From the NCBI RefSeq assembly GCF_964204645.1, contig NC_134032.1:5444275-5508274 (forward strand): a stretch of 64,000 nucleotides of DNA, read 5' to 3'. A program made the translations under genes and the position numbers. Shown piece after piece: positions 5,434 through 63,095 of the stretch. Origin of the DNA: Tubulanus polymorphus (lineage: Eukaryota; Animalia; Nemertea). Below the pieces are notes generated by a model. It was not told the origin of the DNA and did not search any database. It saw nothing but the letters and a program-made list of their open reading frames with translations. Every line of letters starts with the position of its first letter. The first letter of the stretch is position 1.

Positions 5434-5479
5434 TTATTCCTGAAGATGACTATTAGGATATAGTCGAAACGTTGAATAA
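5434..5479 (+). ncRNA. Minimal type I hammerhead ribozyme in the PLE pLTR
   Basis: ttattc-CTGAAGA-t-gactat/atagtc-GAAAC-GTT-gaataa: stems I and II plus the conserved core. Confidence 0.88.
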
Positions 5480-5552
5480 ACTACTATCTTGAAGTTTCAT
5501 TTTCGGACTTTTTATTATCATTGTGGGATTCTCTCCTCACCTATCAATATCT

Positions 5553-7945: not shown

Positions 7946-8246
7946 TTATATTAGAGAAATTTAATAAGAAAAATATTATAAGTATTATAAAATGATACCA
8001 GTATCTCTTCAGATTAATACTAGCTTAGTTAAAGGTAAAGAATTTTAGTATTAGTTATTGTTTTTTTAGTATTTTTTATTTGTGATATAAAGTATTCTTT
8101 TTTGAAAAGAAAATATTAAAAATATAATAGAATTCACTAGCTAGTTGAAGTTATTGTTTTTTAAATACTTTTTATTTAAAATCTATTTGATATCTCACTA
8201 CTTTTGTTTATCTATTAGGAGCAGTAATTATAACTGTCCAGATAAG

Positions 8247-38557: not shown

Positions 38558-38743
38558 AGTAATAGGGATAATGGGCTTTCATACCAAAGGTCGAAGGGTC
38601 GAGCTCGTAAAAAAATGAAAATAATAATTTACAGTTGAATTAGTCGCGCACACTCCTAATTCAACTGTAAATTATTATTATTTTCATTTTTTACTCACTC
38701 GCCCCTTCAACCTTTGATACGAAAGCCTATTATCCCTATTACT
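38558..38743. repeat. Left terminal palindrome (~186 bp)
   Basis: agtaatagggataat...attatccctattact with the loop tcgcgcacactc. Confidence 0.92.
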
Positions 38744-38823
38744 CTTAAAATATTCACATAAATGAATAACATTTAAATCATTGAACTTCTAAAATCAATT
38801 TTAATAAAAAATATAGTATTAAA

Positions 38824-39075
38824 ATGGAAGCAAATAAGTACTACTGCCCAACATGTAATATCGATATAGATAAATCCCAAAAAGCAAGACACAATAAAAC
38901 TATAACACATTTAGAGAATAAATTGAAACTAGAATATTTACAGTTATATTCAGAACAGTTAACAAAGGGAAAGAAATTTATTGAATTATGGAATAATGAT
39001 CCAAATAATGAACAATACGTTGAGGAATTTATTATCAAGGAATCGAAAGAACTTATCAAAAGCAGCGAGGAATGA
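38824..39075 (+). CDS. Small zinc-finger protein (TIR-encoded N-terminus + HNH-derived tail)
   Basis: CPTC...H...H; the tail LQLYSEQLTKGKKFIELWN resembles the HNH C-terminus. Confidence 0.7.
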   Translation: MEANKYYCPTCNIDIDKSQKARHNKTITHLENKLKLEYLQLYSEQLTKGKKFIELWNNDPNNEQYVEEFIIKESKELIKSSEE

Positions 39076-39152
39076 AAAAGGATGACGTTAGTCGAAGAAA
39101 TGGAAGAGGATTCTAAAATGTTAATCAATTTTAATAAAAATATGTATAATAA

Positions 39153-39821
39153 ATGGAGCCGGAACAACCACAAACTATCAATATTACAAATAACACTGGC
39201 GTTATAAACATATATTACAAAAAGTGTTCTAAATGTGAATTAGATAAATTAGCTTTAACAGAATTTAGTAAGCGTAAGATTAGCAAAGATGGTTTTCAAA
39301 ATTGTTGTAAAACTTGTGCTAAACTATATACCAAACAATACCGAGAAGATAATAGAGAATCTTATAATGATTATATGACAGAATACATGAGAGAAAAATA
39401 TAAAACAGATCTTAATTTTAGATTGAAACAATGCTTAAGGTCTAGATTAACACAATTATTCAACAAAGAAACACATTCAGAAACACTATCTAATCTATTG
39501 GGTTGTTCAGATGAATTTCTCAAATCATGGATAATATATCAATTCGATGATAAAATGAATATAGATAATTATGGTGAATACTTTCATATTGATCACGTGT
39601 TGCCGATTTCTAAATTTGACATGAATGATGAATACAATAAAAAACTTATTTGGAACTGGAGAAATTTAAGACCTTTAGAAAAGAAAGAAAATATAATTAA
39701 ATCCAATAAACTAGATTTACAGTTATATTTAGATCAACTGGATAAAGCAAAGACATTTGTTGAATTATGGAATAGTATTTCACAGAATCAACCGCATTCT
39801 GAGGTTTTGATCAGTGGTTAG
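39153..39821 (+). CDS. HNH-family endonuclease-like protein with an N-terminal Cys cluster
   Basis: CSKC...CCKTC and HIDHVLP...NLRPL...EN. Confidence 0.8.
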   Translation: MEPEQPQTINITNNTGVINIYYKKCSKCELDKLALTEFSKRKISKDGFQNCCKTCAKLYTKQYREDNRESYNDYMTEYMREKYKTDLNFRLKQCLRSRLTQLFNKETHSETLSNLLGCSDEFLKSWIIYQFDDKMNIDNYGEYFHIDHVLPISKFDMNDEYNKKLIWNWRNLRPLEKKENIIKSNKLDLQLYLDQLDKAKTFVELWNSISQNQPHSEVLISG

Positions 39822-40169
39822 AAAGCTGGCAATTCTATTTGAGCTTTGTATGTATATAATACATAGCTTTTGTTTACTACTAAAACATATGTTGCCAAAT
39901 ATATCTTGTTTTCAATTCTAAAGAATTAATTAACTTCATCATAAAGAACATCTGTGCAGAAGTTATTAGTTTGGTCGAACGTGCGCCACGTTAGCAGTTA
40001 GAAATCAACTTTCACATACATAGTACGTATTGGATATTCTCTCTCAAAACACAGTTTACAGTTCTAAATCTAAATGTAAGTACCGTTTTTTGTAGTTATT
40101 ATGAAGTAGGGAAACCTTTAAACATATTTAAGTACAGTAATTCATTTTCACGACATCTTTTAGATTAAA

Positions 40170-40632
40170 ATGGAATACAGAACCAGAAATTCTAAGCCAA
40201 CCAACGGATGAGGAACGATTGCTACTGGATAGTGAAACTCAGGAATCAATAGAAATGGAGGATGAAACTCTCGTAATTGACGAACAAACTTCACAAACAT
40301 TACAAGAACATTTGGATTATCATCAAGAAATGGTGAAAATTCTGAGTGATGTAATACATAATAAACAATTACCGCGCGAACTACAATTACCAAAATTACC
40401 AGCAACGCGACTTAAATTGCTGTTGGGACTCAAAGAATCGAGAACTAAGAAAATGAGTGGAGATATCAGTGCCGGTTTTGAAAGAAAACTGAGAAGAGTA
40501 GGTAGATTAATAAAATATGAAAAATTCAAAATATTAGGATTAGCATTTAGTGAAGTAGTAAGACATTTACCAGAAATTGAAGAAATGATTGGAAACAATC
40601 CAGTAATTAAAGAAATCTGGACAAAATTATAA
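40170..40632 (+). pseudogene. Hypothetical protein (MEYR), frameshifted near the 5' end
   Basis: ATG at 40170 is out of frame with 40219-40632; the intact homolog is 8976-9443. Confidence 0.75.
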
Positions 40633-40724
40633 ATTATAACACTGAAGGTCTTTGTAATATAGATATCAAAAATGTAATCTCGATTGTATATATATGTTTT
40701 AATATTGTATTGTTTACTGTTAAC

Positions 40725-40910
40725 TGTGTATTGCGTAATAACCGGTCCGATTGAACCGCTTTTCTATTGTTCTCCATTGTTCTACTATTGATCGTTGTTA
40801 ATGGCGGCGGTTGTTCTGTATTGATTGTTTACTGTTAACTAAGTGTTGCGCAATAACCGGTCCGATTGGACCGCATTTCTATTGTTCTCCATTGTTCTAT
40901 TTTCGATCGC
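40725..40910. repeat. Two direct repeats with palindromic motifs
   Basis: ttgcgyaataaccggtccgattgraccgc...ttctattgttctccattgttcta twice; also at about 8670-8885 (-). Confidence 0.8.
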
Positions 40911-41321
40911 TAAAATGTGTATAATAAATATATATGTTTATGAAATAGTAATTCCACCAGTCGTTTCTTTGAATTTATTTTCAGTTGAGGATTTGATATC
41001 GAGGATCCGAAATGACTTATCTGGACAGTTATAATTACTGCTCCTAATAGATAGACAATAGTAGTGAGATAATCTAAATCCTAATTTAAATAAAATATAA
41101 TAAAAAAACAATAACTTCAACTAGCTAGTGAATTCTATTAAATTTTTAATATTTTCTTTTCAAAAAGAGAATACTTTATATTTTGAATAGATTCAAATAG
41201 AAATTCTTTAAATTCAAATAGCTAGTATCAGTAGTCAATACTAGAATTCTTTAGCTTTAACTATCTAGTATCATTTGAAGAATACTTATAATACTATTCT
41301 TATTAAATTTCTCTAATATAA

Positions 41322-41927
41322 ATGACAAAGAAATCTAATAAAAATAGTATTGATATTGAAAAGACATTAGATGATTTGGGCATAAGTGATAATAATGATA
41401 ATGTGGCAACTAAATGTGATAATAAAATTGATAGTAATATTGATTACGAGTACTATTTATATTGTAAACATCATCTAGAACTATTGATTGCTGGCGGGAA
41501 ATCTAAGGACTTCTTAGGAAAAATAATAACTTTTCAAGAACTAGACTCTATGAAACCCGATAAAGTAATAAAATATTTTAAGATTTATGAAGAGTCAAGA
41601 TTAGCTAGAATAAACGACTCTATAAGTGATGGTATTGTCAAATGTTATTCAAAATTATGTAACCAGTTAATACCAATTGATGATGAAAATAAATTATATA
41701 GTGATTTGAAAAATGACTATTTAGTTATGACTGAATTACAAAAATGGGTTGGATATGCTTCATTTCAATTAGGATCGGTTATGACGTTGATTTCTACTGG
41801 AGTTATAACATTTTCGAACATCAAACCTATGGAATATAAATCAGGTAAGAACGAAACAGATGTACTACAACAAAACATCGAAACAGAAAATGAATCAGAA
41901 CAAAAATTAACTAAAATAAATGAGTGA
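41322..41927 (+). CDS. Conserved Polinton protein with a C-proximal hydrophobic segment
   Basis: Conserved in three copies; LGSVMTLISTGVITFS. Confidence 0.8.
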   Translation: MTKKSNKNSIDIEKTLDDLGISDNNDNVATKCDNKIDSNIDYEYYLYCKHHLELLIAGGKSKDFLGKIITFQELDSMKPDKVIKYFKIYEESRLARINDSISDGIVKCYSKLCNQLIPIDDENKLYSDLKNDYLVMTELQKWVGYASFQLGSVMTLISTGVITFSNIKPMEYKSGKNETDVLQQNIETENESEQKLTKINE

Positions 41928-42291
41928 TGGAGTTAAGAAAAAGGCTAGATCCGAGAAACAAATTAAATGGGCAAGAGAATTAGGTAAAAGATCTTCAGAA
42001 TTAAAAAAAGCTAAGAAAAAGAAATTAACTGATATAAATGAATCTGATGGTGCCGTACGGCACCCACACGGTGGTATTGATTCAAATAATAATCCATCTA
42101 ATTCTTCTAATGCTGGAAGTAATTATAAATTATATATTACAATTGGATTAGTAACAGTTATTATATTATCCGGTGTAATATATAAATCAAAATTCAAATC
42201 CGATGATAAAGATGATTCTAATGATAATAAACCCATCATACCAGAAAATAAATCAAATGAAAATAAATCTAAAATATTATTAATGGATTAA
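41920..42291 (+). CDS. Basic, single-TM protein containing a 27-bp palindromic insertion
   Basis: LYITIGLVTVIILSGVIY TM segment; GAVRHPHGG insert. Confidence 0.75.
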   Translation: MSDGVKKKARSEKQIKWARELGKRSSELKKAKKKKLTDINESDGAVRHPHGGIDSNNNPSNSSNAGSNYKLYITIGLVTVIILSGVIYKSKFKSDDKDDSNDNKPIIPENKSNENKSKILLMD

Positions 42292-42294
42292 AAT

Positions 42295-43383
42295 ATGATG
42301 AAAAAAGAACAATATTTAAGAGAGTTATATTATAACCCAGAAAGTGAAGTATCATATTCAAGTGTTTCGGAATTATGGGATAAAATTAAATCTGATAAAG
42401 AAAAAATAAAATATAGTGAATTAAAATCATGGTTACAAAATCAACCCACATATCAAATTCATAAAAAGATGGATAAAAAATATTTAACAAGAAAAGTTAT
42501 GGTTTCATATATCGATCAGCAATGGCAAGCAGATTTAATTGACATGAAAAACTAAGAAGAATATAACAAAGGATATTTTTGGATACTGAATGTTATAGAT
42601 ATATTCAGTAGATACGCATGGAGTATCTCGATTAAAAATAAAACCGGTATAGAAGTAACAAATGCTTTTAAATCTATATTTAAAGAAGCTATTCCAGATA
42701 AAATACAATTTGATGAAGGTAAAGAATTTTATAACAAACATTTTAAAAAACTATTATCTGATAACGATGTAGAATATTTTTCAACACATTCAGATAAAAA
42801 AGCATCTGTTATAGAAAGATTTAATAAAACATTGAAAACTAGAATGTGGAAATATTTCACCGCTAATGAAACATATAAATATATCGATGTGTTAGATGAT
42901 TTAGTTAAAGGTTATAATAATTCTAAACATAGTTCTATAAATATGAAACCTATACAAGCTAGAAAAGAAGAAAATTCAGAAATAGTTTGGAATAATTTAT
43001 ATGGAGCATTTGTTACACATGATTTTGGAGAACCTAAATTTAAAATAGGACAACATGTTAGAATTTCTAAATATCGAAAAACATTTTATAAAGGTTATAC
43101 CCCTAATTTTACAGAAGAAATATTTAAAATTAAAAAGATAATATTAACTAAACCATTTGTTTATAAATTGTTTGATTTAAAAGATGAAGAAATATTAGGT
43201 TATTTTTATGAACAAGAATTATCATTAGTACCAAATCCAGATGAAATAGAATACAAAATAGAAAAGGTATCGAAAACAAAAACTCTTAAAGGAAAAAAGT
43301 ATTCTTTGGTGAAATATAAAGGATATGATGATAAATTTAATGAATGGATTTTATCTAGTAAAATTAAAAGAATAAATGAATAA
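42295..43383 (+). pseudogene. INT: rve/DDE integrase with a C-terminal chromodomain; in-frame nonsense at 42553-42555
   Basis: WQADL, FDEGKEF, ERFNKT, YN-x3-HSSI, YKIEK...VKYKGY...NEW. TTA>TAA relative to copy C. Confidence 0.92.
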
Positions 43384-43990
43384 AGATTTATTTATATTTG
43401 AACCGCATAATATGTTAATAACTGGAGTAACCAATTGTGGTAAAACACATTTCATATTAGATTTATTAGTAACTATTTATAAAAATCATTTTGATAATAT
43501 AATATTATTCTGTCCTACATATGAAATGAATAAAACATATAATAGAGATATAGTTTTTAAAGATAAAAAGTTTATTATATTAAATTCTAAAACAGTAAAA
43601 GAAAATTTAGATAATTGTATAAAAATAACAATTGATATTCATAAAGGATCAAATACATTATTTATTATTGATGATTGCGCAAATTTACATGATTCTAAAA
43701 TTAGAGAAAGTGAGTTATGTTATTTAGCTTTCTCTGGTAGACATTTTGGGATAACAACTTGGGTTTTAAATCAGAAATATAATTCAATTGTGAAAGATTT
43801 TAGAGAGAATATAAGATTTCTAGTTTTATTCTACAACAAAGATAAAAAATCTATGCAACAATCATTGGAAGAAAATCAAATTATACCTACTGAATTACAT
43901 GATGAATATATGAATAAATTAAAAAATAATAAAGGATCCAAATTACTTATGAGATTACAATTTCCATATGAATATAAATTTATAAAATAA
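43376..43990 (+). CDS. A32/FtsK-like DNA packaging ATPase
   Basis: Walker A GVTNCGKT, Walker B FIIDD, SGRH arginine finger, NQ motif. Confidence 0.92.
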   Translation: MNKDLFIFEPHNMLITGVTNCGKTHFILDLLVTIYKNHFDNIILFCPTYEMNKTYNRDIVFKDKKFIILNSKTVKENLDNCIKITIDIHKGSNTLFIIDDCANLHDSKIRESELCYLAFSGRHFGITTWVLNQKYNSIVKDFRENIRFLVLFYNKDKKSMQQSLEENQIIPTELHDEYMNKLKNNKGSKLLMRLQFPYEYKFIK

Positions 43991-44006
43991 AATCCTAATT
44001 CAAAAT

Positions 44007-44567
44007 ATTATAGAATTCGCTGTATATTGATGGATGAGTGGATGAATTGGATGAATTGGATGAGTGGATGAATGGAAGAGTGAAATAATATATAATTTAC
44101 ATATGTTTTTTATTTTTAAAACAGTAAGAGTTTGATTTGAAGATGTCATATAATAATAAATATATTTTTATAAAATAATAAAATGACAGATAATAAATGT
44201 CATATAATAATAAATATATTTTTATAAAATAATAAATAATAAAATGATAAATAATAAAATGATAAATAATAAATATATTTTTATAAAATAATAAATAATA
44301 AAATGATAAATAATAAATATCATATAATAATAAATAATAAATATCATATAATAATAAATAATAAATGTCATATAATAATAAATATATATTGTGTTAAATT
44401 TAATAAAGAATAAAAATATTATATTTATACTCATACTATTCTTCCAATTTATGTGTTAAAAAGTAAAATATATATATTATTATACTCATTCACTCTTCCA
44501 CTCATCCAATTCATCCAACTCTTCCAACTCATCCATTCATCCATCAATATACAGTGAATTCTATAAT
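44007..44567. repeat. Central inverted repeat enclosing AT-rich tandem repeats, between the convergent gene arms
   Basis: attatagaattcgctgtatattgatggatga... / ...tcatccatcaatatacagtgaattctataat. Confidence 0.88.
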
Positions 44568-44571
44568 CTTT

Positions 44572-45639
44572 TTAATTTTCATTTTCATATTTTTCTTTAA
44601 GCTTATTATATTCTAAATATATATCCCTTTCCATTTTATTTGGTATAATTCCTGAACGATTCCCAAGTTTATATTTATAGAATTTTGCTCTTGAAAATAT
44701 TTTTGGAATATAATTTTCGATTTCAGTTTTAGATGGATGTTTATTTAAAAATTCTCTAAAATCATCATATTTAAGTTCAAATAACTTCATTGCATAACTT
44801 ACATTTGGTTTAAAGTTATCTAACTTTTTCAATATGGTAACTATATCATTACTCGAGAAATAATCTATAAATGTTTTTCTATACCACCGATAATCTAATA
44901 TATTATTATTATTAAATTTTGAATTTATAACTCTTGGATCTTCTATTACATTATCTGTACCAATATGTTTAATTGAGTATTTATGATTCAATTGTTTATC
45001 ATATATTACATATTCTTTACATTTTTCACACCAAGATTTAAATACTTTTATTGCATGGGCTGAATCATTTCCACTTTTTGTTTTTAATTTATAATGTTTT
45101 GCCCAATTAGCCTTTGTTATACATTCATTACAGAAAGCACAATAATTCTGATCCTCTTTACATTTATCTTTATATATATTAGCATATGTTTTTACTAATT
45201 GTAAAATATGTTCATCTTTTTTGATGTGTAATAAATAATCATTATAATTATCAAAATCTTCTTCACAATACATACATCTGATGTTATCTTTTGGTTGAAC
45301 ATTTGATTTTTCTATTTTAGGTTCAATATTATGTTCTATTTTAGGTTCAATATTATCATCATTCGATGTAGAAGGTATAACATTATCTTCTATTTTAGGT
45401 TCAATATTATTTTCTATTTTAGTTTCAATATTATCTTTTATTTTAGGTTCAATATTATCTTCTTTTTTTATATCAATATTATTATTACGTTCAATTAAAT
45501 ATTCTTTGTATTGATTTAATTCATTTAATAAAAATGTTCCAATATATTCATTTATTCTTTTATAAGGTATTACATAATACAAATCATCATTGATTTCTTT
45601 ATCAGCTTTGATTCTTTCATATACTTTACCTCCTTCCAT
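44572..45639 (-). CDS. Multi-zinc-finger protein with IEPKIEDN repeats
   Basis: CMYC...H...H, CAFC...H, CEKC...H...H; 24-bp tandem units. Confidence 0.8.
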   Translation of the reverse strand: MEGGKVYERIKADKEINDDLYYVIPYKRINEYIGTFLLNELNQYKEYLIERNNNIDIKKEDNIEPKIKDNIETKIENNIEPKIEDNVIPSTSNDDNIEPKIEHNIEPKIEKSNVQPKDNIRCMYCEEDFDNYNDYLLHIKKDEHILQLVKTYANIYKDKCKEDQNYCAFCNECITKANWAKHYKLKTKSGNDSAHAIKVFKSWCEKCKEYVIYDKQLNHKYSIKHIGTDNVIEDPRVINSKFNNNNILDYRWYRKTFIDYFSSNDIVTILKKLDNFKPNVSYAMKLFELKYDDFREFLNKHPSKTEIENYIPKIFSRAKFYKYKLGNRSGIIPNKMERDIYLEYNKLKEKYENEN

Positions 45640-45671
45640 TTATTATATATATTTTTATTAAAGTTAAAATT

Positions 45672-46919
45672 TTAATACATAACACTATCTAATTGTGAAT
45701 TTACAATATTTAATTGCGCGTCAGATATAATATAAATGTGCATTTTAAAATTTTTAATTCCTTTTTTCTTTGTCATGAATAATTGTATTCCATCTTTAGT
45801 GTTTTGTAGTTTTTTTCCAGAACCATGTAATGAATTATCTTCAGTTGTTCTAAAATCTAACCATAATGCATATTTATTACCGGTATAATAATCAATTTGA
45901 TTAATGTTACAATTTTCAAATGATTTTATTTTTTCATTCATAAAATGTTTTCTAATTTCTACCCATTGATCTATCATTCTCATTCCTTGACAAAATATTT
46001 TATTCGCTATTCCTTCGATAGTTATTTCTACTTTTGTTATTTCAGGATTATAATAATTGTCAACATTTATTGCACCATTAGTATACGTTCCAATGGTAAA
46101 AAATATTAATATACCTTTAATAGATCTTCTAGGGAAGTTAATATTCTCATTTATTATTTCATCATTTGCATTAATAGTTACAGTTTTAAATTTATCAATA
46201 TAATCATATAATAATGAAAATCCTTGATTGTATTGAGTTTGAATTGTGCTAGCAATATTTTCATCAGTTACTGTATCATATTCTAAACATATATTCGATA
46301 ATTTATAACTCATATCTTTAACAACGCTAGATAATACAATTTCATTTACAGGAGCAAATGTTATCTCAAATATAACGTCTTCTTGAATTGCGTATTTATA
46401 TAAAGGTGCATTATTATTTATCAATTCAAAGTCTAATGGAATTTTATATTTGCTTCCATATATACTTTTTATCAATTTATCTACATCATTTGTTAATATT
46501 GCGCTATTAGCTTCTGATCTTAATTTATTTTGGTTTTCTGATTGGATGCCTTGAAATATCATATTATTTCTATTTTCTTTAGTTAACCATAAATCTTTAT
46601 AATGCATAAATAAATTATAATCATCTAATGAGAAAACTGTTTCCGGACCAATCTTTATTGTTAACTTTTTAATCAAATATCTTCCAACATTATCAACGAC
46701 ATAATTATTATTATTACCGGTTACTTTTATATCAGCTGATAAATAAATACTATTTGGAACATAAAAAGTATTTTGTGTTAATCTCGGAATTGTAACGTAT
46801 AAAGTTTCATCGGGATTAATATTTGAAGGGTTATGAGTAATTATATGATGTGATCTTTCTGCTTTAATAGCATTAGATATTCTATGATTCTTAGAAGGAT
46901 TGATATAACTCCCACTCAT
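45672..46919 (-). CDS. Putative major capsid protein (double jelly-roll)
   Basis: 415-aa beta-rich protein conserved in all copies. Size and context fit a Polinton MCP; recognised by pattern, not by search. Confidence 0.75.
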   Translation of the reverse strand: MSGSYINPSKNHRISNAIKAERSHHIITHNPSNINPDETLYVTIPRLTQNTFYVPNSIYLSADIKVTGNNNNYVVDNVGRYLIKKLTIKIGPETVFSLDDYNLFMHYKDLWLTKENRNNMIFQGIQSENQNKLRSEANSAILTNDVDKLIKSIYGSKYKIPLDFELINNNAPLYKYAIQEDVIFEITFAPVNEIVLSSVVKDMSYKLSNICLEYDTVTDENIASTIQTQYNQGFSLLYDYIDKFKTVTINANDEIINENINFPRRSIKGILIFFTIGTYTNGAINVDNYYNPEITKVEITIEGIANKIFCQGMRMIDQWVEIRKHFMNEKIKSFENCNINQIDYYTGNKYALWLDFRTTEDNSLHGSGKKLQNTKDGIQLFMTKKKGIKNFKMHIYIISDAQLNIVNSQLDSVMY

Positions 46920-46973
46920 TTATTTAACAAAAAAATTAATTATTTATTTATTGATATTTTTTGATATCATGGT

Positions 46974-48404
46974 TTACTTGATATTTTTTGATATCATATT
47001 CACTAACCCAAAAATAATAGCACTTACAACTGTGATTAAAAATAAAATAATATGTTCAGCAGCAAAGTTAATAATGTTTCCTGCAGATTTCAATATAAAA
47101 CCAACAATTGAAGCAATAACTCCTGGTAAAGCTGCAGCAGATTTTTTAGATAGTTCCCATAAATATTTTGCTAATTTCTTTAAACCATCTTTAACTTTAT
47201 CTTGTATAGAATTATTTCCTGGAGGTTTATCTGGTTTATTTGGAGTAGGAGTAGATTTTAAAGCATTTGATATTGCTAAACCAATTGTTGTAAATAACAT
47301 AGTAACAGCTGTTAGAATTGAAAGAATTGTTATTCCTTCTAATTTAAATAATAACTTTATTCTATCTTTTAATGATATTTCAGAATTTGGTTTAATCAAC
47401 AAATCTTTAAAAATAACTTTTAATCTATTAATATTATAATCATATGATTTTAACAATAATTTAATTTCTTCTTTCTGTACTTCTAAATTATCTTTTAGAT
47501 TACTAATTTCTTTTTCTAAACGTAATTCTTTTTGCTTATATTCTATTTCATCAATTACTTGATGATCTAAATCAGACTTTAATTTTTCTATTTCTTTATT
47601 TTTATCAGTTAATTCTTTTTCTAAAGTTCTAATTTTTTGATCTCTTATACTTTTATTATGTGCAATTTTATCAGCTTCATTTCTTATACTAATAATTTCT
47701 CTAATTGCTTTATCAGAAAATATATCTAAATCTTCTAATTCTTGATCTGTTGCATCAAGTAATCCATTTGGTAAAAGTTTTTCAGTTTGAACTTTATTTG
47801 ATTTAAGTTTACTAGTTTTGGAAGTTATATTCTGTTCAGAAGTTGTTTCTGTTTCTAAATTATTATTGATTATCTTAAAAAATTTAGCATTTCTTTGTTT
47901 AAATTCTTTTATATTATCAGATCTTTCTTTTTCTGTAACATCAATTATAGCATCATTTTTGATTTTCTTAATTCTAGATTGTTCTAATAAATTAAAAGTT
48001 GATTTTGTTATTATTTTATCACCACTTTTAAGATTTGAAATCTTAAAATAATAGTCGCCTTTCAATTTCCAATAATATTCACCATTTAAAAATTTTAAAT
48101 TTTTTACTAAATGATCCATACCTTTATTTGTTATATTGAATCCAGATTTTTCTAATATTGGTTTAAATTCATGAATAATTTCATTATATTTTAATTCTTT
48201 TTCTGTTAATTCTGGTACTTCATTTTCAATACTTATCTTTGAACGTGTTTTATCAATATATTGAGGTGTAGTTAAATTAGAATTATATGCTGTTTCATTA
48301 CCATCATTAAAACTTGTTTCATCAAAATCAGGTGGTTGTTCATCAGTTATACCAGGTTCATCAAAAGGATCCATTCCAATATCTTCTACACCTTCTACTT
48401 CCAT
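46974..48404 (-). CDS. Coiled-coil protein with C-terminal hydrophobic/TM helices
   Basis: Charged heptad region followed by ITILSILTAVTMLFTTIGLAI and IILFLITVVSAIIFGLV. Confidence 0.8.
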   Translation of the reverse strand: MEVEGVEDIGMDPFDEPGITDEQPPDFDETSFNDGNETAYNSNLTTPQYIDKTRSKISIENEVPELTEKELKYNEIIHEFKPILEKSGFNITNKGMDHLVKNLKFLNGEYYWKLKGDYYFKISNLKSGDKIITKSTFNLLEQSRIKKIKNDAIIDVTEKERSDNIKEFKQRNAKFFKIINNNLETETTSEQNITSKTSKLKSNKVQTEKLLPNGLLDATDQELEDLDIFSDKAIREIISIRNEADKIAHNKSIRDQKIRTLEKELTDKNKEIEKLKSDLDHQVIDEIEYKQKELRLEKEISNLKDNLEVQKEEIKLLLKSYDYNINRLKVIFKDLLIKPNSEISLKDRIKLLFKLEGITILSILTAVTMLFTTIGLAISNALKSTPTPNKPDKPPGNNSIQDKVKDGLKKLAKYLWELSKKSAAALPGVIASIVGFILKSAGNIINFAAEHIILFLITVVSAIIFGLVNMISKNIK

Positions 48405-48420
48405 TTACATAATAAAAAAA

Positions 48421-49809
48421 TTAAAATTTAAAATATAATATTCCTCCGATTACAATTCCTATACAAGTTATAGCTAATTTAGTATTTTCATGGGATTTAT
48501 TATCATCATTTAGTTTAATTATATCATGTTGAATTTTATCAGTTCTATTATTTTCTGTAGTATTGTAATCTTTTATTTTAGAATCATTATCCAATTTAAT
48601 ATTTTTAGTTTTAGTTTCAGTTGATTGAATATGTTTTTTATTTTTTTCACCTTCCATTAATTTTGGAGCAGTAATAATCTTTTTATTTATATCATTCAAT
48701 CCAAATGAATTATTTATTGTTGCAGTTTTAATTAGATTTTTATAACCAATTATGTTTCCCATCTTTAATACTAAATCATTAGAAATAATTAATAGATTAG
48801 GGCCTATACAATAATTTAGTCTTACATGAGATTTATCTAAATAATTTTGATATCTTATAATGTTTTCTGGAATCGATCTATTTTTATCATTATGAATTGA
48901 ATCTTCAAATAAAACTTTAAACTGTTTTTGTGTATCGAATGATGTATTCAAATTTCCAATTATCGGTGATCTTGTTTCAACTTGTGATCCTAGAATACAA
49001 ATCAAATAAGTTCTAATAGATTGATTTATTCTTTCTATACCTGATTTAGTAAAACCTTCACTATTTTCTAAAATAAAATAAACCCAACCATTATTGTTTT
49101 CTTGTTTTAGATTATCATAAAATTTCGGTAATTTATTGAAATTTAATGTTTCTAAATCCTTTGTTTCTATTTTACCATAACCTAATTTTTTATTATAGAT
49201 ATTATAAAAACTATTAGATGGTATGGGAAGTGCACAATATTCTGCAATCTTTCTAGGGCAAGGAAGTGATCTTATTGTTCCTATTTTTATTCTAAAATCA
49301 GAATTATTTATATCTATATTAAATTCATTGCAAATTTTATAAAACTTAGATAAATTAATATTATTATCCAATTCTTTGAAATACCTAGATCCTGGTAAAG
49401 CGCACTCTAATTCATTTAATATTATTCTGATTTGAAAGTATGTATGAAATCTAAATAAACTTTGAATTAGTTTATATTTAGAATTATTTAAATGATCATT
49501 CCAACTAATTCCACATCCTGTTGTTGCACAATAAACAGCAAAATTTAATTGATTCTGCCAATACTTCATATTAGATTTTAATAACCATTGTTTTTCATCT
49601 TTCAATTTTTTAAAATTAATTAAATATACATGAAATATATTTTCCATCTTTGCATTAAAATTATTAGTTTCAGTAACATAAATTTCTAAATTAGTTAATG
49701 AATCTAAAACTTCATTTCTATATGTAATATCTTTATTAAAATCTATTGCAGGAATATTATATTTAATTGATTTATTATATTGGAAAGCTTTTGGAAAACT
49801 ATCTACCAT
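48421..49809 (-). CDS. Conserved 462-aa protein with a C-terminal TM anchor, function unknown
   Basis: WQNQLNFAVYCATTGCGIS; tail LAITCIGIVIGGILYF. Confidence 0.8.
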   Translation of the reverse strand: MVDSFPKAFQYNKSIKYNIPAIDFNKDITYRNEVLDSLTNLEIYVTETNNFNAKMENIFHVYLINFKKLKDEKQWLLKSNMKYWQNQLNFAVYCATTGCGISWNDHLNNSKYKLIQSLFRFHTYFQIRIILNELECALPGSRYFKELDNNINLSKFYKICNEFNIDINNSDFRIKIGTIRSLPCPRKIAEYCALPIPSNSFYNIYNKKLGYGKIETKDLETLNFNKLPKFYDNLKQENNNGWVYFILENSEGFTKSGIERINQSIRTYLICILGSQVETRSPIIGNLNTSFDTQKQFKVLFEDSIHNDKNRSIPENIIRYQNYLDKSHVRLNYCIGPNLLIISNDLVLKMGNIIGYKNLIKTATINNSFGLNDINKKIITAPKLMEGEKNKKHIQSTETKTKNIKLDNDSKIKDYNTTENNRTDKIQHDIIKLNDDNKSHENTKLAITCIGIVIGGILYFKF

Positions 49810-49826
49810 TTATATAATTAAAAAAA

Positions 49827-50261
49827 TTAATAATTTATTAATTCTTTTAATAATTTATCTTGTTCTTCAACTGTTATATGACCATTTAAACTTATTATAT
49901 AATCTAGTGTGTTCTTTAATTTATTTATTTCTTTTATATTAGTTTTAATTTTTTCTTTATTACTTTTTATATTTAATTTTGAACTTATACCAGTTAAAAC
50001 ACTTGAACTTAATCCTAATACACCAATTGATATAGCTAAAGGTGTTAATGGACTGAATATTGCTAGAAATGTTATTACAGAACTAATTGTAACCGAACCA
50101 CTTATAATCATATAATATATAATTTTACTTTTTAAATATTTTTTCTTTTTTATCTTTAAGTCACTTACAAATTCTAATATTTGTTTTTCTAAATATGTTT
50201 TTAATTTAGTTTTATTTATATCATGAGGAATAATATCAATACTATCAACTTTATCTTCCAT
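49827..50261 (-). CDS. Two-TM protein
   Basis: IIYYMIISGSVTISSVITFLAIFSPLTPLAISIGVLGLSSSVL. Confidence 0.78.
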   Translation of the reverse strand: MEDKVDSIDIIPHDINKTKLKTYLEKQILEFVSDLKIKKKKYLKSKIIYYMIISGSVTISSVITFLAIFSPLTPLAISIGVLGLSSSVLTGISSKLNIKSNKEKIKTNIKEINKLKNTLDYIISLNGHITVEEQDKLLKELINY

Positions 50262-50282
50262 TTATTTAGCAAAAAAAAATTA

Positions 50283-50705
50283 CTAATTAGTAAACTTATA
50301 AGCAACAAATATAACAATAACTGTTCCACCTAAAATCCAAATTATTTCATATTTCTGTTGTTCTTTACTTGGGGTATAATAATCTGATAATTTAGGTTTG
50401 TATAGATGTAATTTTTCTTTATTTGTTACTGCGTTATATAAACTCATTGCATCATCAACTGATTTAAAATCTCTGTGTGAAATCTTCTGATCATATAATT
50501 CTTTGTTAATATAATCCATATAGTTTTGCCTCTTTTCTCTATATTCTTCTGCAGCTTTATTGTATTTCTCTAACGCTAAGTTATGTCTTCTTTGTTCTCC
50601 TAATGAACTATTTTTATCAATATGTTTAAATAAATAACCACCACCAGTAAATGCTAAAGCGTTAACAATTGCCGATCCTATAATAGTTATAATTGCAGAA
50701 GCCAT
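50283..50705 (-). CDS. Membrane protein with hydrophobic N- and C-termini
   Basis: MASAIITIIGSAIVNALAFTGGGYLF; IIWILGGTVIVIFVAY. Confidence 0.78.
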   Translation of the reverse strand: MASAIITIIGSAIVNALAFTGGGYLFKHIDKNSSLGEQRRHNLALEKYNKAAEEYREKRQNYMDYINKELYDQKISHRDFKSVDDAMSLYNAVTNKEKLHLYKPKLSDYYTPSKEQQKYEIIWILGGTVIVIFVAYKFTN

Positions 50706-50730
50706 TTATTTAGCAAAAAAAATTATGTAT

Positions 50731-50952
50731 TTATATGGGAGGAATATATTTTTGTTTTTCCAAATAATCAATTGTTAAATTAGATAAAGTAACCGCTAAT
50801 GTTAATTTTAAAATATCATTTATATCAAATCTATCAACATTAACACTTCCCATTTTGAATACTTTTTTTAATACCATTGAATAACCAACCGTTCCAACTG
50901 ATAGTCATGCGCCATTATATAATCCAGTTATTATCCACTTATTATCACTCAT
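50731..50952 (-). pseudogene. Small hydrophobic protein with an internal TGA; intact homolog at 16458-16679
   Basis: gcatgacta here versus gcattacta in copy F. Confidence 0.7.
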
Positions 50953-50955
50953 TTA

Positions 50956-51294
50956 TTAATCAAAAAAATTACTATCTTCAAAATATTTAGTTAACTTATT
51001 TATGATTAATTCAACATTTATTTTATTACTAGTTTTATGATTATCATATATTTTGGATAATATGTTTTTGATATCATCAATAATTCCATCTTCATTTAAT
51101 TCATAATATTCTAAAGGTGATTTAATTAAATCAATTACTTTTTCTATATTATAGTTTTCTTTATCAATCATTGATGCATTGTTAAATGATTTACTTTTTA
51201 TATCAGTAATTACATCATTTAGTTTAATTCTCATTTGTTTACCATGTTTAAAATCAAACCCAAAACATATACTCGGTCCAACAGTTATATTCAT
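50956..51294 (-). CDS. Hypothetical protein
   Basis: ORF with a TAAATG start; a degenerate homolog lies near 16180-16455. Confidence 0.65.
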   Translation of the reverse strand: MNITVGPSICFGFDFKHGKQMRIKLNDVITDIKSKSFNNASMIDKENYNIEKVIDLIKSPLEYYELNEDGIIDDIKNILSKIYDNHKTSNKINVELIINKLTKYFEDSNFFD

Positions 51295-52070
51295 TTATAT
51301 ATCAAAAAAATTACTCTACATCTTATAACTAATTCATATATCACAGGAAAGTTATTTAAATCAATTAAGTATCCATTATGATTTCTAATTTCTAATCTAA
51401 AATTATTAAAACGAGGAATGCATGGTTTGAAATCACATTCTGTTAAATTATAATTTATTTGCGTTCCAAATTCTTTAACATTCTTCAATGGTAAAATGTT
51501 TAGTAAACCAGAATTACAAGTTATATCTTTAGTTGCTTCGAATGTTTTTGTAGGATCGATTAAATTGCAATAAATATAAAAATGTGTGTAAGGTATTAAG
51601 TTTGGTGTAGTAGCGTCAATATTTGTAAAAGATCTATCTGGAATAATTCCTAACAGTTTAGCTATAGGTTTTTTTACCATAAATTTATGTTTTTCACTAT
51701 TAGACAACCTTATCTTTATTCTATCAGAACTCTCATTTTTTTAAAATCTAATACTAAACCCAGAACTACTACCTAATTTGTGCCAAGCTTTTCTATTAAT
51801 TTCTTGTGCTAATGTATCTAAATTATATAACCCCGGTTTTAAATATATATAGACCCATTTATTTTTATTTTTATTAAAAACTAAAAAGGCTCTATGTTCA
51901 ATAGTTTTATTCGATATATTGTAAAAAGAATTACATAAACTTATATTTACTAATTTTAAATCAACACAATTCTTGGATTCTCTATCTAATTGTACTAATA
52001 AATTATGTGATTTATAATTTGTAAGTTTTCTAGAATCAACAAATATTCTGTATTCTTTTAATTCCGCCAT
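51291..52070 (-). pseudogene. Minor capsid (penton-like, single jelly-roll) protein, frameshifted near 51740
   Basis: IFVDSR...NSFYNIS...PGLYN...KLLG...YIYCNLI...LLNILP...EIRNHNGYLIDLN matches the mCP pattern. Confidence 0.75.
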
Positions 52071-52087
52071 TTATTTTACATATTTTC

Positions 52088-52429
52088 TTATTCGAAATCT
52101 ATTTCATGGTGCCCTTTTTCATTCTTACCTTTGTATACGAAATAGAAATCTCCAGAACATAATTCTTCTAGATCTTCACTTGATAATCTATGAAATCTAT
52201 CTGGTAAATAAGTTCTGAATTTATATGTATTTCCTTTTAATCCTTCATATTCTAAATGAATTACTAATTTATCTCCATATTTATTAGTAATTGTTTCAAT
52301 GTTAGTAATTAAATATTTCTTGTGAATTGTTAACTCAGTTAGTTTTTTAAATTTATAATCTACAGATTTGACGCTTGAAGTATCTTTAATTCTATCTAAG
52401 AATTCACTGTGTACTTGTTTACTCTCCAT
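52088..52429 (-). CDS. Small protein next to pPolB, possibly an OB-fold ssDNA-binding protein
   Basis: TNKYG...LVIHL...TYLP.RF...FVYKG beta-rich pattern; the fold assignment is an inference. Confidence 0.5.
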   Translation of the reverse strand: MESKQVHSEFLDRIKDTSSVKSVDYKFKKLTELTIHKKYLITNIETITNKYGDKLVIHLEYEGLKGNTYKFRTYLPDRFHRLSSEDLEELCSGDFYFVYKGKNEKGHHEIDFE

Positions 52430-52457
52430 TTATTATACAAATTTTTATTGAAATTGA

Positions 52458-55400
52458 TTAACACGTTAGAATCCTTTTCATAATCTCATTTTCTTTTGTT
52501 TCTTCTCTTTTGAATTTTATATATTCATCTAAATTGCAACCATAGGCGACTGTGTGGATTCCATCATCTAAAATATATCTTTTATCATCAAATGGATTCA
52601 AACTTATCTTCTCTATCTCTTCAATATACATTTCATGATCTTCAGATCTTAAACATTTCATCTTATGTTTTCTAACTTCTTCATTAAATATACAATTGAT
52701 GTAATCTTTAAAATGAATATTCTTTTCAACAACGCTTTTGGTAATTCCTTTTAACTTTTTAGCTTCATGAGTTTTGGTTTTATATGAATACATTTTAGAT
52801 CTAATACCAATGAACTCTATCATTTCTTCACCACCTAATTCATCTTTGAATTTACCGGGAACTTTTTTATTATCATTGCTAAACAATTCATGATCTTTAG
52901 GATAGTTACTAAAATCAAAATGATGTTTTAATGTTTTTAAATCATCAGTTATGTTATCAGTTTTTATCTTTAATATATAACTGTCAGTATCAAAGTATAG
53001 AATTTCTATGTGTTTTTCTCCAAAATGAGGTTGTAGTATATTATAGTAAAATTTATACATTAGGAATTTTGATAATTCTAAAACTGCAGCTCCAACATAA
53101 ATCGGTTTGTTAAATTTCATACTTGTTCTTCTCATTTTAACTGCAGCTAAATTTTCATCAAATATTCTGTTACCTATAAACTTAGGATATGATTGTAAAT
53201 GCCTTATCCTTTTACCATTACTAACTAAATCAATATCATTTCTATTTCTAATATTTTCACAAGTTTTTCCATAGAATACATTATTCATTAACTTAAAAAA
53301 ATCTTTTTCAAAATCAGTTTTAGATTTAGTTCTCTGTGTAGTATTAAAATCTATATATTTTTCTAACCATTTAGATTGACTGAATGAAATATATCTATGT
53401 ACTTTTTTTAATATCATTCCTTGATTCAAATAAAACTTCAACATTCTATAATGCACAACGTAATTATATTTATCTTCTTGAGTTACCATTAACTTTTCTG
53501 TATGAATATGATTATCGGGTTTAATTCTTTTTTGATAATTTGATAATTCTTCATGTTTAACAGTTTTATGTTCGGGACAATATGCTAGATTTCTAGATTT
53601 GAATTTAATATTTTCAGGGTATTCTAAATCTACAACGAAGAAGTAACCAATATCTGAATCATCTGCAATATCTAGGATTCTTTTCTTCCAATCAAATTTA
53701 TCAATTTGTAAAACTTCAGTTATTTCAAACATCCCATAAGGTTGTGGTTCCATCATTGCCCAACCATAAAGATTATTTGCATCTATGTACAATAATTTAT
53801 ATCCAGGATTATCATTTACATTGAAATATCTATCACCTAATACACCTGAAACACCTCCTCTTATAGATTTTTCAAATAATAGTAATTGATCTATATTTGT
53901 TAACAAATCCATTTTTATATCTGTAAATTTTAATCCACAATCCCATGTTAATCCTGGTGATGAATAACAATGACATGGATCAATGTTAAAATATTTTAGG
54001 TTTACATCTCTAAACCTTTCGAATATATCGGTTAATAATAATACATCTGATTTTAAATATAAATCTACTAATTGACCATGATTTTCTATTTTGAAATGAT
54101 TCCAAATATTCAATGTTCTATTGTAGACTTCATCTTTAACATATTCATTTTTTAATTCATCATAAAATTGTTCTTTTAATAATTCAGTTATTTTAAAATC
54201 ATTATGATTTTTATAGAAAGAATATGGAATCGCTCCTTTATATCTCATTAATTGGAAATCATCATTATTTGGGTAATATTCTTTTAATATCTTTAATTCA
54301 TCATCAACTAATGATTTTGATAAGTTATCTAATGAACTATTTAAAAATCTATATGAATCTATAAATCTTAGACAACCAAATTGGAATGATATATAATTCT
54401 CAGATGTTTTAGCTAACATTCTAAATTTATAAGTTGGTATTTTATCTTTTGATCTATTTGAATTTAATATTTCTATTTCATTATTGATTTCTTCTATTTT
54501 ATGACATAACTGTTTGATAAATAAATGCGCGTCATACCCCGATAAATTGTGAAATATAATGGGGACAAAATTGATTTTCTTTGCTTGCAAATTACAATTC
54601 TCATGCGCAGCGCCTCTAAACTTTCCATTCAAATGATCATGGTCTCTTACTTTTTTATCTTTATAATTAAATATCTTTTCACAATAATAACATTTATCTG
54701 CAAACGCAAATTCTTCTTTATTTTCTTCTGTCATAATTATTTCTTTATTTGTATTCAATAATTTACTAAATCTTATTTCATATTCAATTAATAAGTCACA
54801 AAAATGATTGATAACATTTTCATTTCTATAATTATAATATTCACTTTCAATTAGTTCTGGATAATCAGATTTAATATATAACCCGAAAGCTGCAGCTGAT
54901 TGATGAATCTTTTTAATAGTATTTGTTTTTGGTGGTTCTTCTGAATAATCACTTTCATTAGAATTTAATTTCTTTCTTTTATAATATATTTCTTTTCTAT
55001 CTTTATCTGTTAATTCTTTATTTAATGATTCAAAATCTCCATATATTACAAATGGTACTTTATTTTTGTAATCATATTTTTTGAATTCTAATATTTTATC
55101 TTTTTCATTTGGTAAAACTAATTTACAATAATCATGATTATCACATAGTTGTTTATGATTTAATAATGTACTTTCATTACTAAATTTATGTAAACATTTT
55201 CTACATAGATATATTTTATTATGGTGATCACTTTCTGTTCTAAAAAATAAATCTATTTGTTTAATCCACATATAATGATTCTCATAATATAGTATATCTA
55301 TAACATCGTTTGAATCATAATCTTTTGATAGATATAAAGGTTCTAATGTATAATGTTTTATGTTGTTACCTTTTGTATTTGGTAATTTGATTAAATCAAA

Positions 55401-56492
55401 TACATTTATCTTTATATTATTATCTCTTTCTATTTTTGGAATATTTTTAATTCTAACAGGATACTTATCTATCTTATAATTATTTTCAAATGGTTTATAA
55501 TGAGTTAATCTAAAACTATGTTGTTTATAATCTTCAACTGGGTGTGAGCAACTTATAATTGTCCATAGAAAACATTTATCATCTTCATTTTGTACATTTA
55601 TTACAGCATTAGTTTTAAATGGTAGTTTAATATAACTTGATGCTTCAATATCTGGTTCTTTCTAATATGATAAATTATTTTCATCAATTGGTTTTGATTT
55701 AGTTAACTTATTATATTTTGTGTTATAAACATGTAAAGTTATAAATATTATCTCATCAAATATTAAACCAGATCCTTCAAAATATTTCTCTTCTATTTTA
55801 GTTTTTATTTCATTATAACATTTATTTAATTTATCATCTATATGTTGTTTAGATATAATATGTTGTGAATGAGAATTTATATTATATATTGGTTTATCTT
55901 CAGATTTTATAAACTTTACTTTAACTGATATACTTATTTTAGGATATTCAACATCTGTAATTATTTTTATTATTTATTTCATATTTTCTAAATGTTTTTT
56001 ATTTTCTTCTATTGTTTTTCCTTTATGAAATTTAAACTCGATAGCTGCTGGACCAATATCACTTTTAAATGCTTCGGTTATCTCTATATCTTTTTTATTA
56101 TCTAATGAATTAATATAATTTCTTACATCTTCCATACATGGTCTTTTATTGTTTAATTTATTTTTTATTCTTTTAATTGTCTTCTGTTTCTTATCGTTAT
56201 CATTATCAAAATAATCTTCACCTAAAATATCATTATTCTTATTTCTAATATGACTTATAGATTTTAAATGTTCTTTATAATATCTTTTATCACTGAATGA
56301 TTGATTACATATATCACATTTGTATGTTTCTTTTTCATTCCTTAATTCTTCTAATTTAGTTTCTAATATATCATCTTCATATTCTAGTTTCAATTTATTC
56401 TCTAAATGTGTTCTAGTTTTATTGTGTCTTGCTTTTTGGGATTTATCTATATCGATATTACATGTTGGGCAGTAGTATTTATTTGCTTCCAT
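52458..56492 (-). pseudogene. pPolB: Protein-primed DNA polymerase B with N-terminal zinc fingers/terminal-protein region and an endonuclease-VII-like Zn insert; disrupted between about 55975 and 55660
   Basis: Exonuclease motifs YGDFES, FHNLSGYD, YLKSD; polymerase motifs YIDANNLYG, KLMNNVFYGK, YFDTDS; CYYC...RDHDH...GAAH..CN. Confidence 0.95.
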
Positions 56493-56572
56493 TTTAATAC
56501 TAAATTTTTTATTAAAATTGATTTTAGAAGTTCAATGATTTAAATGTTATTCATTTATATGAATATTTTAAG

Positions 56573-56840
56573 AGTAATAGGGGTAATAGGCTTTCAAGCT
56601 AAAGGTTGAACGGGCGGGTGAGTAAAAAATGAAAAACATAAAAATAATAACAATTTCTACTTTAATTAGGAGTGAAACTCATAAAAATGAAAAATTAATT
56701 CGAGCGTGTGAGAATTAATTTTTCATTTTTATGAGTTTCGCGAGTAATTCAAGTAGAAATTGTAATTATTTTTATGTTTTTCATTTTTTACGAGCTCGAC
56801 CGTTCGACCTTTGGCTTGAAAGCCTATTACCCCTATTACT
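56573..56840. repeat. Right terminal palindrome (~268 bp)
   Basis: Same outer arms as the other ends; core gaaactcataaaaatgaaaaattaatt / aattaatttttcatttttatgagtttc. Confidence 0.92.
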
Positions 56841-59690: not shown

Positions 59691-60058
59691 TAGCGTTAAG
59701 AAGAAGCCTAGATCCGAGAAACAAATTAAATGGGCAAGAGAATTAGGTAAAAGATCTTCAGAATTAGAAAAAAGCTAAGAAAAAGAAATTAACTGATATA
59801 AATGAATCACAGACTTTATCTGATATTGATTCAAATAATAATCCATCTGATTCTTCTAATGCTGGAAGTAATTATAAATTATATATTACAACTGGATTAG
59901 TAACAGTTATTATATTATCCGGTGTAATATATAAATCTAAATTCAAATCTGATGATAAAGATGATTCCAATGATAATAAACCTATTATACCAGCAAATAA
60001 GTCAAATGATAAAGTCATTGAAAATAAACCAAGATTATTATTAATGGATTAAAATAAG

Positions 60059-61188
60059 ATGAAAAAAGAACAATATTTAAGAGATTTATATTATAACCCA
60101 GAAAGTGAAGTATCATATTCTAACGTTTCAGAATTATGGAATAAAATTAAATCTGATAATGAAAATGGTAATGGTGCCGTACGGCACCCACACGGTGGTA
60201 TAAAATATAGTGAATTGAAATCATGGTTAAAAATCAACCAACAAATCAAATCCACAAGAAAATGGATAAAACTTATTTAACAAGAAAAGTTATGGTTTCA
60301 TATATCGATCAACAATGGCAAGCAGATTTAATTGAAATGAAGAACTTAGAAGAATACAACAAAGGATATTTCTGGATATTAAATGTTATAGACATATTCA
60401 GTCGATACGCATGGTCAATTCCAATCAAAAATAAAACTGGTATAGAAGTGACAAATGCTTTAAAATCAATATTTAAAGAAGCTATTCCAGATAAGATACA
60501 ATTTGATGAAGGTAAGGAATTCTATAACAAACATTTCAAAAAACTATTATCTGATAACGATGTAAAATATTTTTCAACACATTCAGATAAAAAAGCATCT
60601 ATTATAGAAAGATTTAATAAAACATTGAAATCTAGAATGTGGAAATATTTTACTGCTAATGAAACATATATTTATATCGATGAGTCTATAAATATATTAG
60701 ATGATTTAGTGAAAGGTTATAATAATTCTAAACATAGTTCTATAAATATGAAACCTATACAAGCTAGAAAAGAAGATAATTCGGAAATAGTTTGGAATAA
60801 TTTATATGGAGCATTTGTTACACATGATTTCGGTGAACCTAAATTTAAAATTGGACAACACGTTAGAATATCTAAATATAGAAAAACATTTTATAAAGGT
60901 TATACCCCAAATTTTACAGAAGAAATATTTAAAATTAAAAAGATAATATTAACTAAACCTTTTGTTTATAAACTAGAAGATCTAAAAGATGAAGAAATAT
61001 TAGGTTATTTCTATGAACAAGAATTATCACTTGTACCAAATCCAGATGAAATAGAATACAAAATAGAAAAAGTATTGAAAACAAAAACTCTTAAAGGAAA
61101 AAAGTATTCTTTGGTGAAATATAAAGGATACGATGATAAATTTAATGAATGGATTTTATCTAGTAAAATTAAAAGAATAAATGAATAA
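60059..61188 (+). pseudogene. INT: rve integrase + chromodomain, frameshift near 60230
   Basis: DDE motifs intact in 60223-61188; N-terminus in 60059-60280. Confidence 0.9.
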
Positions 61189-61995
61189 AGATTTATTTAT
61201 ATTTGAACCGCATAATATGTTAATAACTGGAGTAACCAACTGTGGTAAAACACATTTCATATTAGATTTGTTAGAAACTATTTATAAGAATCATTTTGAT
61301 AATATAATATTATTCTGTCCTACTTATGAAATGAATAAAACATATAATAGAGATATAGTTAAGATGAAAAAGTTTATTATATTAAATCCTAAAACAGTAA
61401 AAGAAAATTTAGATAATTGTATTAAAATAGCAATTGATACTTATAAAGGATCAAATACATTATTCATTATAGATGATTGCGCAAATTTACATGATTCAAA
61501 AGTTAGAGAAAGTGATTTATTTTATCTAGCTTTCTCTGGGAGACATTTCGGGATAACAACATGGGTTTTAAATCAAAAATATAATTCAATTGTTAAAGTA
61601 CATTATAGAATGTTAAAGTTTTATTTGAATCAAGGAATGATTCTAAAAAAAAAGTACATAGATATATTTCATTCAGCCAATCTAAGTGGTTAGAAAAATA
61701 TATAGATTTTAACACCAAACAGAGAACTGAAGCTAAAACTGATTTCGAGAAAGATTTCTTCAAGTTAATGAACAATGCATTCTATGGTAAGACTTGTGAA
61801 AATATTAGAAATAGAAATGATATTGAGTTAGTTAGTAATGGTAAAAGAATTAGACATTTACAATCATATCCTAAGTTCATTGGTAACAGAATATTTGATG
61901 AAAATTTAGCCGCAGTTAAAATGAGAAGAACATCAATGAAATTTAATAAACCAATCTATGTTGGCGCTTCAGTTTTAGAATTATAAAAATTACTA

Positions 61996-63063: not shown

Positions 63064-63095
63064 AATTTTAACTTTAATAAAAATTTATTATATAA

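Follow-up and report, generated by a model that had tools for sequence, protein, structure and literature searches.

A 27-bp GC-rich palindromic sequence at three sites of a Polinton family in a probable animal genome

A long-standing question is by what means hairpins of 20-40 bases that carry no genes move; it is posed by the double-hairpin elements (DHEs) and GC clusters of mitochondria, the SDRs of Nostoc and the Rickettsia palindromic elements (RPEs). The sequence described here, a 27-mer found in a window of 64 kb (the whole stretch of DNA that was analysed), belongs to a kind of element already known, and what is new is its setting, a Polinton in what is probably an animal genome. In size, hairpin and precision of insertion it resembles what is said of the SDRs, which Elhai and colleagues reportedly described in 2008 as hairpins of 21-27 nt with precise insertion, often nested in other repeats. 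The SDRs are cyanobacterial, whereas the targets of the 27-mer are plain AT-rich viral DNA. SDRs are named in PMC3116915, and a further known analogue, MUSE1, in PMC7218506 (published sources are cited throughout for their accessible portions).

By analogy, the 27-mer may work like mitochondrial DHEs and GC clusters. It shares with the DHEs of Allomyces and Schizosaccharomyces, and with the hairpin elements of sponge mtDNA, the character of a short, GC-rich, gene-less unit in an AT-rich replicon, presence or absence at different sites (three of three here) and occasional in-frame insertion in protein genes (PMC10085805, PMC2800124); like Allomyces DHEs, it has no flanking duplication (PMC2800124). 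DHEs are, however, two-hairpin units (PMC10085805, PMC2800124), and the second hairpin of the 27-mer measures only 3-4 bp. The comparison is one of description, not of sequence, and sets units of mtDNA against one that lies in an integrated nuclear virus and has a strict AT|AT target (a vertical bar marks the insertion point).

Yeast mtDNA GC clusters such as GC42 are likewise GC-rich palindromes set in DNA very rich in AT, and their homologous sites too occur both filled and empty (PMC4478555). GC42, however, has 42 nt instead of 27, and each cluster lies between direct repeats (AG or ACT) that resemble a target duplication (PMC4478555); the 27-mer has no such repeats. RPEs offer a different likeness, being palindromic inserts in tolerant parts of unrelated genes, where they are translated in frame; they are about 150 bp long and bacterial, whereas the 27-bp sequence resides in a eukaryotic virus and occurs also in non-coding DNA (PMC10969869).

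The 27-mer and its Polinton host

The hallmarks of Polintons/Mavericks are a protein-primed-type family B polymerase (PolB), a retroviral-like integrase, a packaging ATPase and terminal inverted repeats, with capsid proteins, a protease and a 6-bp target duplication as further features (PMC8097293). Judged from its predicted genes and its ends, copy A (Table 1) fits this group, since PolB, integrase, packaging ATPase and terminal inverted repeats are all present. The integrase of the family matches rve (PF00665) and has a chromo domain, and the polymerase ORF has an internal endonuclease VII domain (PF02945, E 3.3e-5); the separate endonuclease VII/HNH-like ORF matches HNH_4 at E 0.19 only. 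No Pfam match to a protease was found among the 19 ORFs scanned, and no target duplication is visible at the ends of copy A, the right one of which is abutted by a Penelope-like element. Because family-wide read depth is several hundred, the family has many copies.

Polinton-like DNA makes up about 39 of the 64 kb, and the copies bearing the 27-mer sit among Penelope-like and Gypsy-like elements. Some peculiarities of this neighborhood were noted: (i) Positions 1-31000 of the window hold many nested, inverted and partly deleted pieces of the same Polinton family. (ii) Copy C is rearranged at 61181-63503, with ATPase, polymerase and capsid-like pieces in chimeric ORFs. (iii) Two Penelope-like retroelements (3792-5539 and 56838-58568) are 98.6% identical, the second being the one that abuts the right terminal repeat of copy A; the label comes from reading their ORFs, and the only related ORF that was profile-scanned, at 28966, matched RVT_1. 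(iv) Three TTAGGG telomere-type repeats (13186-13203), which copy A lacks at the matching position, lie within a degraded piece of polymerase gene; they suggest break repair by telomerase and a host with TTAGGG telomeres.

Table 1. Coordinates of the 27-mer, its sites and the Polinton features in the window
Feature	Position	Strand	Remarks
Polinton fragment B, exact empty allele of site 3	8183..8202	-	AT|AT, cut about 8192
Polinton/Maverick copy A	38558..56839	.	24% GC; AGTA...TACT terminal inverted repeats
Endonuclease VII/HNH-like ORF, copy A	39153..39821	+	phrog_1035, E 2.8e-17; candidate nicking enzyme
Site 3	41068..41083	+	non-coding; empty in copy A, filled in other genomic copies (reads, contigs)
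Membrane-protein ORF (123 aa), copy A	41920..42291	+	open through the element
27-bp element, site 1	42049..42075	+	membrane-protein gene of Polinton copy A; codon phase 0
Empty integrase site (site 2), copy A	42400..42411	+	position about 42405
A32 ATPase, copy A	43376-43990		PF04665 (Pfam)
Weak capsid match, copy A	45672-46919		Capsid_N, E 0.006
Family B polymerase, organellar/viral type	52458..55271	-	PF03175, E 6.5e-15; candidate copying enzyme
Empty allele of site 1, copy C	59820..59830	+	cut 59824|59825
Integrase (rve + chromo), copy C	60059..61188	+	broken by frameshift near 60229
6 extra bases 5' of element, copy C	60167..60172	+	bring insert to 33 bp
Identical 27-bp element, site 2	60173..60199	+	integrase N-terminus, Polinton copy C; in frame

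The initial annotation had reported an identical 27-mer in the membrane-protein gene of copy A and in the integrase of copy C, and the search confirmed both: at up to three mismatches, the window contains exactly two matches, both on the + strand. Two matches were reached in none of 100 shuffles, and no 9-mer of the 27-mer occurs in the 64-kb window outside these copies. The identity of the two copies gives no date (p 0.13 at 7% divergence), and their distribution, with both in the 39 kb that are Polinton-like and neither in the remaining 25 kb, is not significant (p about 0.37).

With 70% GC against 24% for the surrounding Polinton, the 27-mer starts at its 5' end with a perfect 16-bp palindrome (42049-42064 in the site 1 copy), so that its left end is flush with the palindrome base. 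The second hairpin (42064-42074) is weak, which corrects the double hairpin claimed earlier. The minimum-energy DNA fold is the first hairpin alone, at -5.7 kcal/mol (z -0.28 relative to shuffles), with the two-hairpin fold 0.3-0.5 kcal/mol above it, whereas the minimum for RNA has both hairpins, at -11.4 kcal/mol. In context, TGGT borders the core on both sides, and in a register shifted leftward by one base the element begins with TG and ends with GTGG. The length equals nine codons with no stop in any frame on either strand, and the coding copies translate as GAVRHPHGG.

Filled and empty alleles at three sites

The two window copies occupy different genes, and each site is empty in the other Polinton copy, as had been claimed before. 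At site 1, the empty allele in copy C reads TGAT|ATTG; directly before this point, copy C has 12 bp that are missing from copy A. Comparison of eight membrane-protein homologues (found by phmmer; a word search found none) places the insert in a variable linker between a basic N-terminal motif and a hydrophobic stretch, and none of the eight has a GAVRHPHGG-type peptide at this position. The membrane gene of copy C is frameshifted as well, near 59767, away from the element site.

At site 2, the 27-mer identified by the initial annotation is there, but the insert relative to copy A is 33 bp long instead of 27 because six further bases precede it, and the empty site of copy A does not itself read ATAT. 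The 33-bp allele still keeps the reading frame, and the frameshift of the copy C integrase lies downstream of the element. A contig of X3 (joint 42404->42048) also has site 2 filled, with different letters where copy C has the six extra bases. The insert falls in a loop where, by eye, at least 8 of the 120 listed integrase homologues have insertions of their own, and no GAVRHPHGG-type peptide occurs at this position among those 120; the named homologues include one from a nemertean (55%) and one from a nematode (49%), which together with the TTAGGG repeats point to an animal host. Querying with the integrase N-terminus including the insert returned a single protein, without the insert. Both coding inserts start at codon phase 0.

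A third site emerged from reads of four runs (3 samples, 2 studies), placed on 39850-44100 at 80% likeness; the inner letters at site 3 may accordingly differ from those of the 27-mer. The rows listed (15 of 76 joints, 12 of 75 contig joint rows and 12 of 151 indels) yield at least three sites. The left joint of site 3 (41067->42046) is covered by 29 X6 reads with 22 start places, whose short side never exceeds 33 letters, and it recurs in contigs of X1, X2 and X3 (3 samples, 2 studies); at the right joint (42077->41083), 18 reads return after seven other letters. These joints represent an insertion, given the short side and the return joint, for a true deletion would continue into the membrane gene. 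The AT at 42076-42077 and the seven following read letters equal the right flank of fragment B, which reads GAGAT|ATCAAATAG with nothing in between. Site 3 therefore has a filled and an empty allele that correspond exactly, at AT|AT, without target duplication. Both it and site 1 already read ATAT when empty, so there is no flanking repeat of the GC-cluster type.

About 29 of 470 reads are filled at site 3, and about 94% are empty. The depth of the X1 contig at the site 3 joint, which is not a copy number, is 712.6 versus 22-133 for most other listed X1 joints, and the depth bin containing the element shows no excess over its neighbors. Read fraction and X1 depth suggest that the filled allele is present in several genomic copies, in which case insertion preceded multiplication of the virus.

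Site 3 lies about 36 nt past the stop codon at 41034 and upstream of AATAAA motifs, with no convincing ORF found across it. This position, together with an RNA that folds into both hairpins, is what might be expected if the hairpin were a functional viral signal (for transcript processing, pausing or packaging) or if a useful Gly/Pro/His peptide were kept by selection. We nevertheless regard selection for such a role as very improbable: where copies can be counted, most do without the element (about 94% of reads at site 3), the contexts differ, the peptide is absent from the 120 listed integrase and 8 membrane-protein homologues, and a positive role would leave the movement unexplained.

At all three sites, the orientation is the same, the right end is exact, insertion is at AT|AT without target duplication, and both flanks run on into Polinton DNA. 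ATAT occurs at 2.2% of positions in copy A, giving P of about 5e-4 for two further hits once the first is given. The shared orientation, by comparison, has a 1-in-4 probability by chance, and the shared codon phase of the two coding sites 1-in-3. In-frame fusion in unrelated ORFs is seen at both coding sites, so the earlier description of a frame-preserving insert in genes suits sites 1 and 2 but not site 3; because one of the three sites is non-coding, frame-keeping is best read as a survival filter. Longer micro-homology as a guide was considered and rejected, since flanks beyond AT|AT are no more alike than those of random ATAT sites (total p 0.38; best side p 0.09).

By one route or another, the 27-mer is very probably mobile, and likely among the smallest selfish DNAs. 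The initial claim of mobility has gained from the third non-homologous site, with both its junctions in reads and its exact empty allele in the window. The two cases that were to count against that claim can be set aside. One was that only two sites exist through one local rearrangement; on the Polinton map sites 1 and 2 are indeed close, at a distance of about 350 bp, but site 3 is about 1 kb away from them and appears in three samples, and with the shuffle result an origin of the window copies by a single rearrangement, or by chance, is highly improbable, the former being largely refuted. The other was that the 27-mer is the end of a larger transposon. A solo remnant or excision footprint of such a transposon, inserted three times, would account for TGGT on both sides of the core, as short terminal repeats; we judge it improbable, as no longer form was seen, both junctions at all three sites are in Polinton DNA, none of the six largest listed X6 loose-end stacks is at the ends of the element, and plasmid and phage collections hold no true match. 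It is on the grounds of three non-homologous sites, empty alleles and Polinton flanks on both sides that we exclude both one rearrangement and the end of some larger insertion.

Candidate routes of movement

Protein-primed polymerases use strand displacement, which exposes single strands, as is established for adenovirus-type replication. We tentatively favor, at somewhat short of an even chance, the reading that a selfish micro-element, folded up as a single strand, is copied to new places as the virus replicates. Protein-primed strand-displacement replication would expose single-stranded Polinton DNA, and the palindrome could fold in the exposed strand, its hairpin setting the ends of the copied unit. 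A nascent strand might then jump at an AT beside the donor copy, copy 27 nt and return at the next AT; a nick by the Polinton-encoded endonuclease VII could initiate the jump. Since donors carry AT on both sides, jump and return at AT would produce AT|AT without duplication. Inserts in frame in tolerant loops, or between genes, would survive and spread with the virus to many genomic copies. The candidate machinery is encoded in cis (one polymerase and two endonuclease VII domains), and the multi-copy allele of site 3 fits an insertion before further spread of the virus. Against copying stands the fact that two bases, AT, are little to account for such exact ends.

Exact ends suit an enzyme, and in the main alternative the 27-mer would be a minimal substrate that a host HUH transposase (a Helitron RepHel or similar Rep) moves in trans. 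In the register shifted by one base to the left, the element consists of a 16-bp palindrome plus 10 nt placed between A and T without duplication at all three sites, which resembles the 3' end of Helitrons, with their insertion between A and T, lack of duplication and 16-20-bp palindrome near the 3' end (PMC6544945). The A|T target in this shifted register, the palindrome 10 nt before the 3' end and the fixed orientation extend the likeness to HUH elements at large (PMC6544945, PMC10288648), as Rep transposons in general have hairpins and insert in a specific orientation (PMC10288648); the HUH-type elements compared include Replitrons (PMC10288648). The ends, however, are TG and GTGG in place of the 5' TC and 3' CTRR of Helitrons, and the length is far below the 162-257 bp of non-autonomous Helitrons (PMC6544945). 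The Helitron 5' end is essential for activity (PMC6544945), and 27 nt are too short for one. No HUH family appears in the Pfam matches of the 19 ORFs scanned, and the window has no other end of the palindrome-plus-[C/G]TRR|T type. From its letters, then, the 27-mer may work like an HUH substrate but is apparently not a Helitron member, and movement by a host HUH enzyme seems unlikely to us.

A further possibility is that endonuclease VII/HNH or another nuclease makes blunt cuts at the midpoint of ATAT, where double-stranded 27-mers would then be captured through end joining. The cut at the center of palindromic ATAT without duplication at three of three sites agrees with this, as do the endonuclease VII gene of the Polinton and the small changes next to two sites, one with 6 additional bases and one with a 12-bp deletion. 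From end joining, however, ragged ends and both orientations would be expected, but one orientation and three of three exact right ends are observed, and a source of free 27-mers is not known; we consider it quite unlikely.

Returning to copying during replication, a fuller version of it is possible but doubtful to a slightly greater degree: a 27-nt element living only in an animal DNA virus, moved by the viral polymerase and nuclease, and persisting as a harmless 9-residue loop in viral proteins. If true, the Polinton would have a parasite of its own, comparable to the GC clusters of organelles but nuclear and animal, and with a candidate for its mover encoded in cis. The setting is an 18-kb virus-like genome with few genes and many genomic copies, in which filled and empty alleles occur together. 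This small gene set and the coexisting alleles leave few candidate movers, namely the viral proteins (polymerase, integrase and endonuclease VII) or an HUH enzyme of the host, and make the question of the mover testable on the phylogeny of the copies and in vitro. The element also exemplifies how viral proteins can acquire new peptide loops.

Searches beyond the window and other hairpins

Matches in four kinds of collection, which contain little animal DNA, were all taken as chance. In IMG/VR, the 16-bp palindrome gave seven matches, none with the tail, and the 3' 16-mer gave 39, all in DNA of 47-68% GC, the best with 23 of 27 letters. A 22-mer query of JGI metagenomes gave two matches inside GC-rich (67% and 61%), bacterial-looking genes, and none of the 15 plasmid and 12 phage collection records covers 80% of the query. 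Rfam returned one match, at E 0.75, far below its threshold, and capsid and integrase queries against viral contigs found no relative. We found no report of such a micro-element in Polintons/Mavericks in the literature covered, which lay outside subscription papers, and the accessible part of a preprint on polisuvirus mosaicism (10.64898/2026.10.13.758929) has nothing on such elements.

In GTDB bacterial and archaeal MAGs, 39 contigs (L010-L048) encode Polinton-type integrases; they are probably mis-binned eukaryotic viral DNA. All 39 loci together show no excess of GC hairpins (33 versus about 35 in shuffles), their relatedness being only 32-50% identity. In homologous integrases, a palindrome of half-length at least 8 could be encoded by 6 of the 52 short inserts compared (10 long terminal extensions were left out), versus 14 of 150 control windows, and in a shuffle test 1 of the 52 reached p<=0.05 (positive control p 0.03). 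With no excess in the 39 loci or in the integrase inserts, a general habit of Polintons is not supported. Odd integrase inserts that GC hairpins could encode were noted in P0008, P0030 and P0045 (PSAEGH and VPEGH in one protein, PLGSREPKA, and GHRPDGH); those of P0008 and P0030 are leads only, the insert set as a whole being without enrichment.

Other hairpins occur in the window. A long-stem hairpin at 1991-2060, with AT-rich arms and a GC-rich loop of GGAGC repeats, lies between terminal-repeat fragments of the Polinton. Between Polinton genes, at 40703-40909 and 8670-8913, a unit about 115 bp long, containing a CGGTCC...GGACCG hairpin, is repeated in tandem; repeated hairpins like it are found also at 488, 599 and 747, and these tandem units are possibly viral regulatory motifs. 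A lone GC-rich hairpin with a 9-bp stem (23708-23731) lies just before the start of a Polinton fragment.
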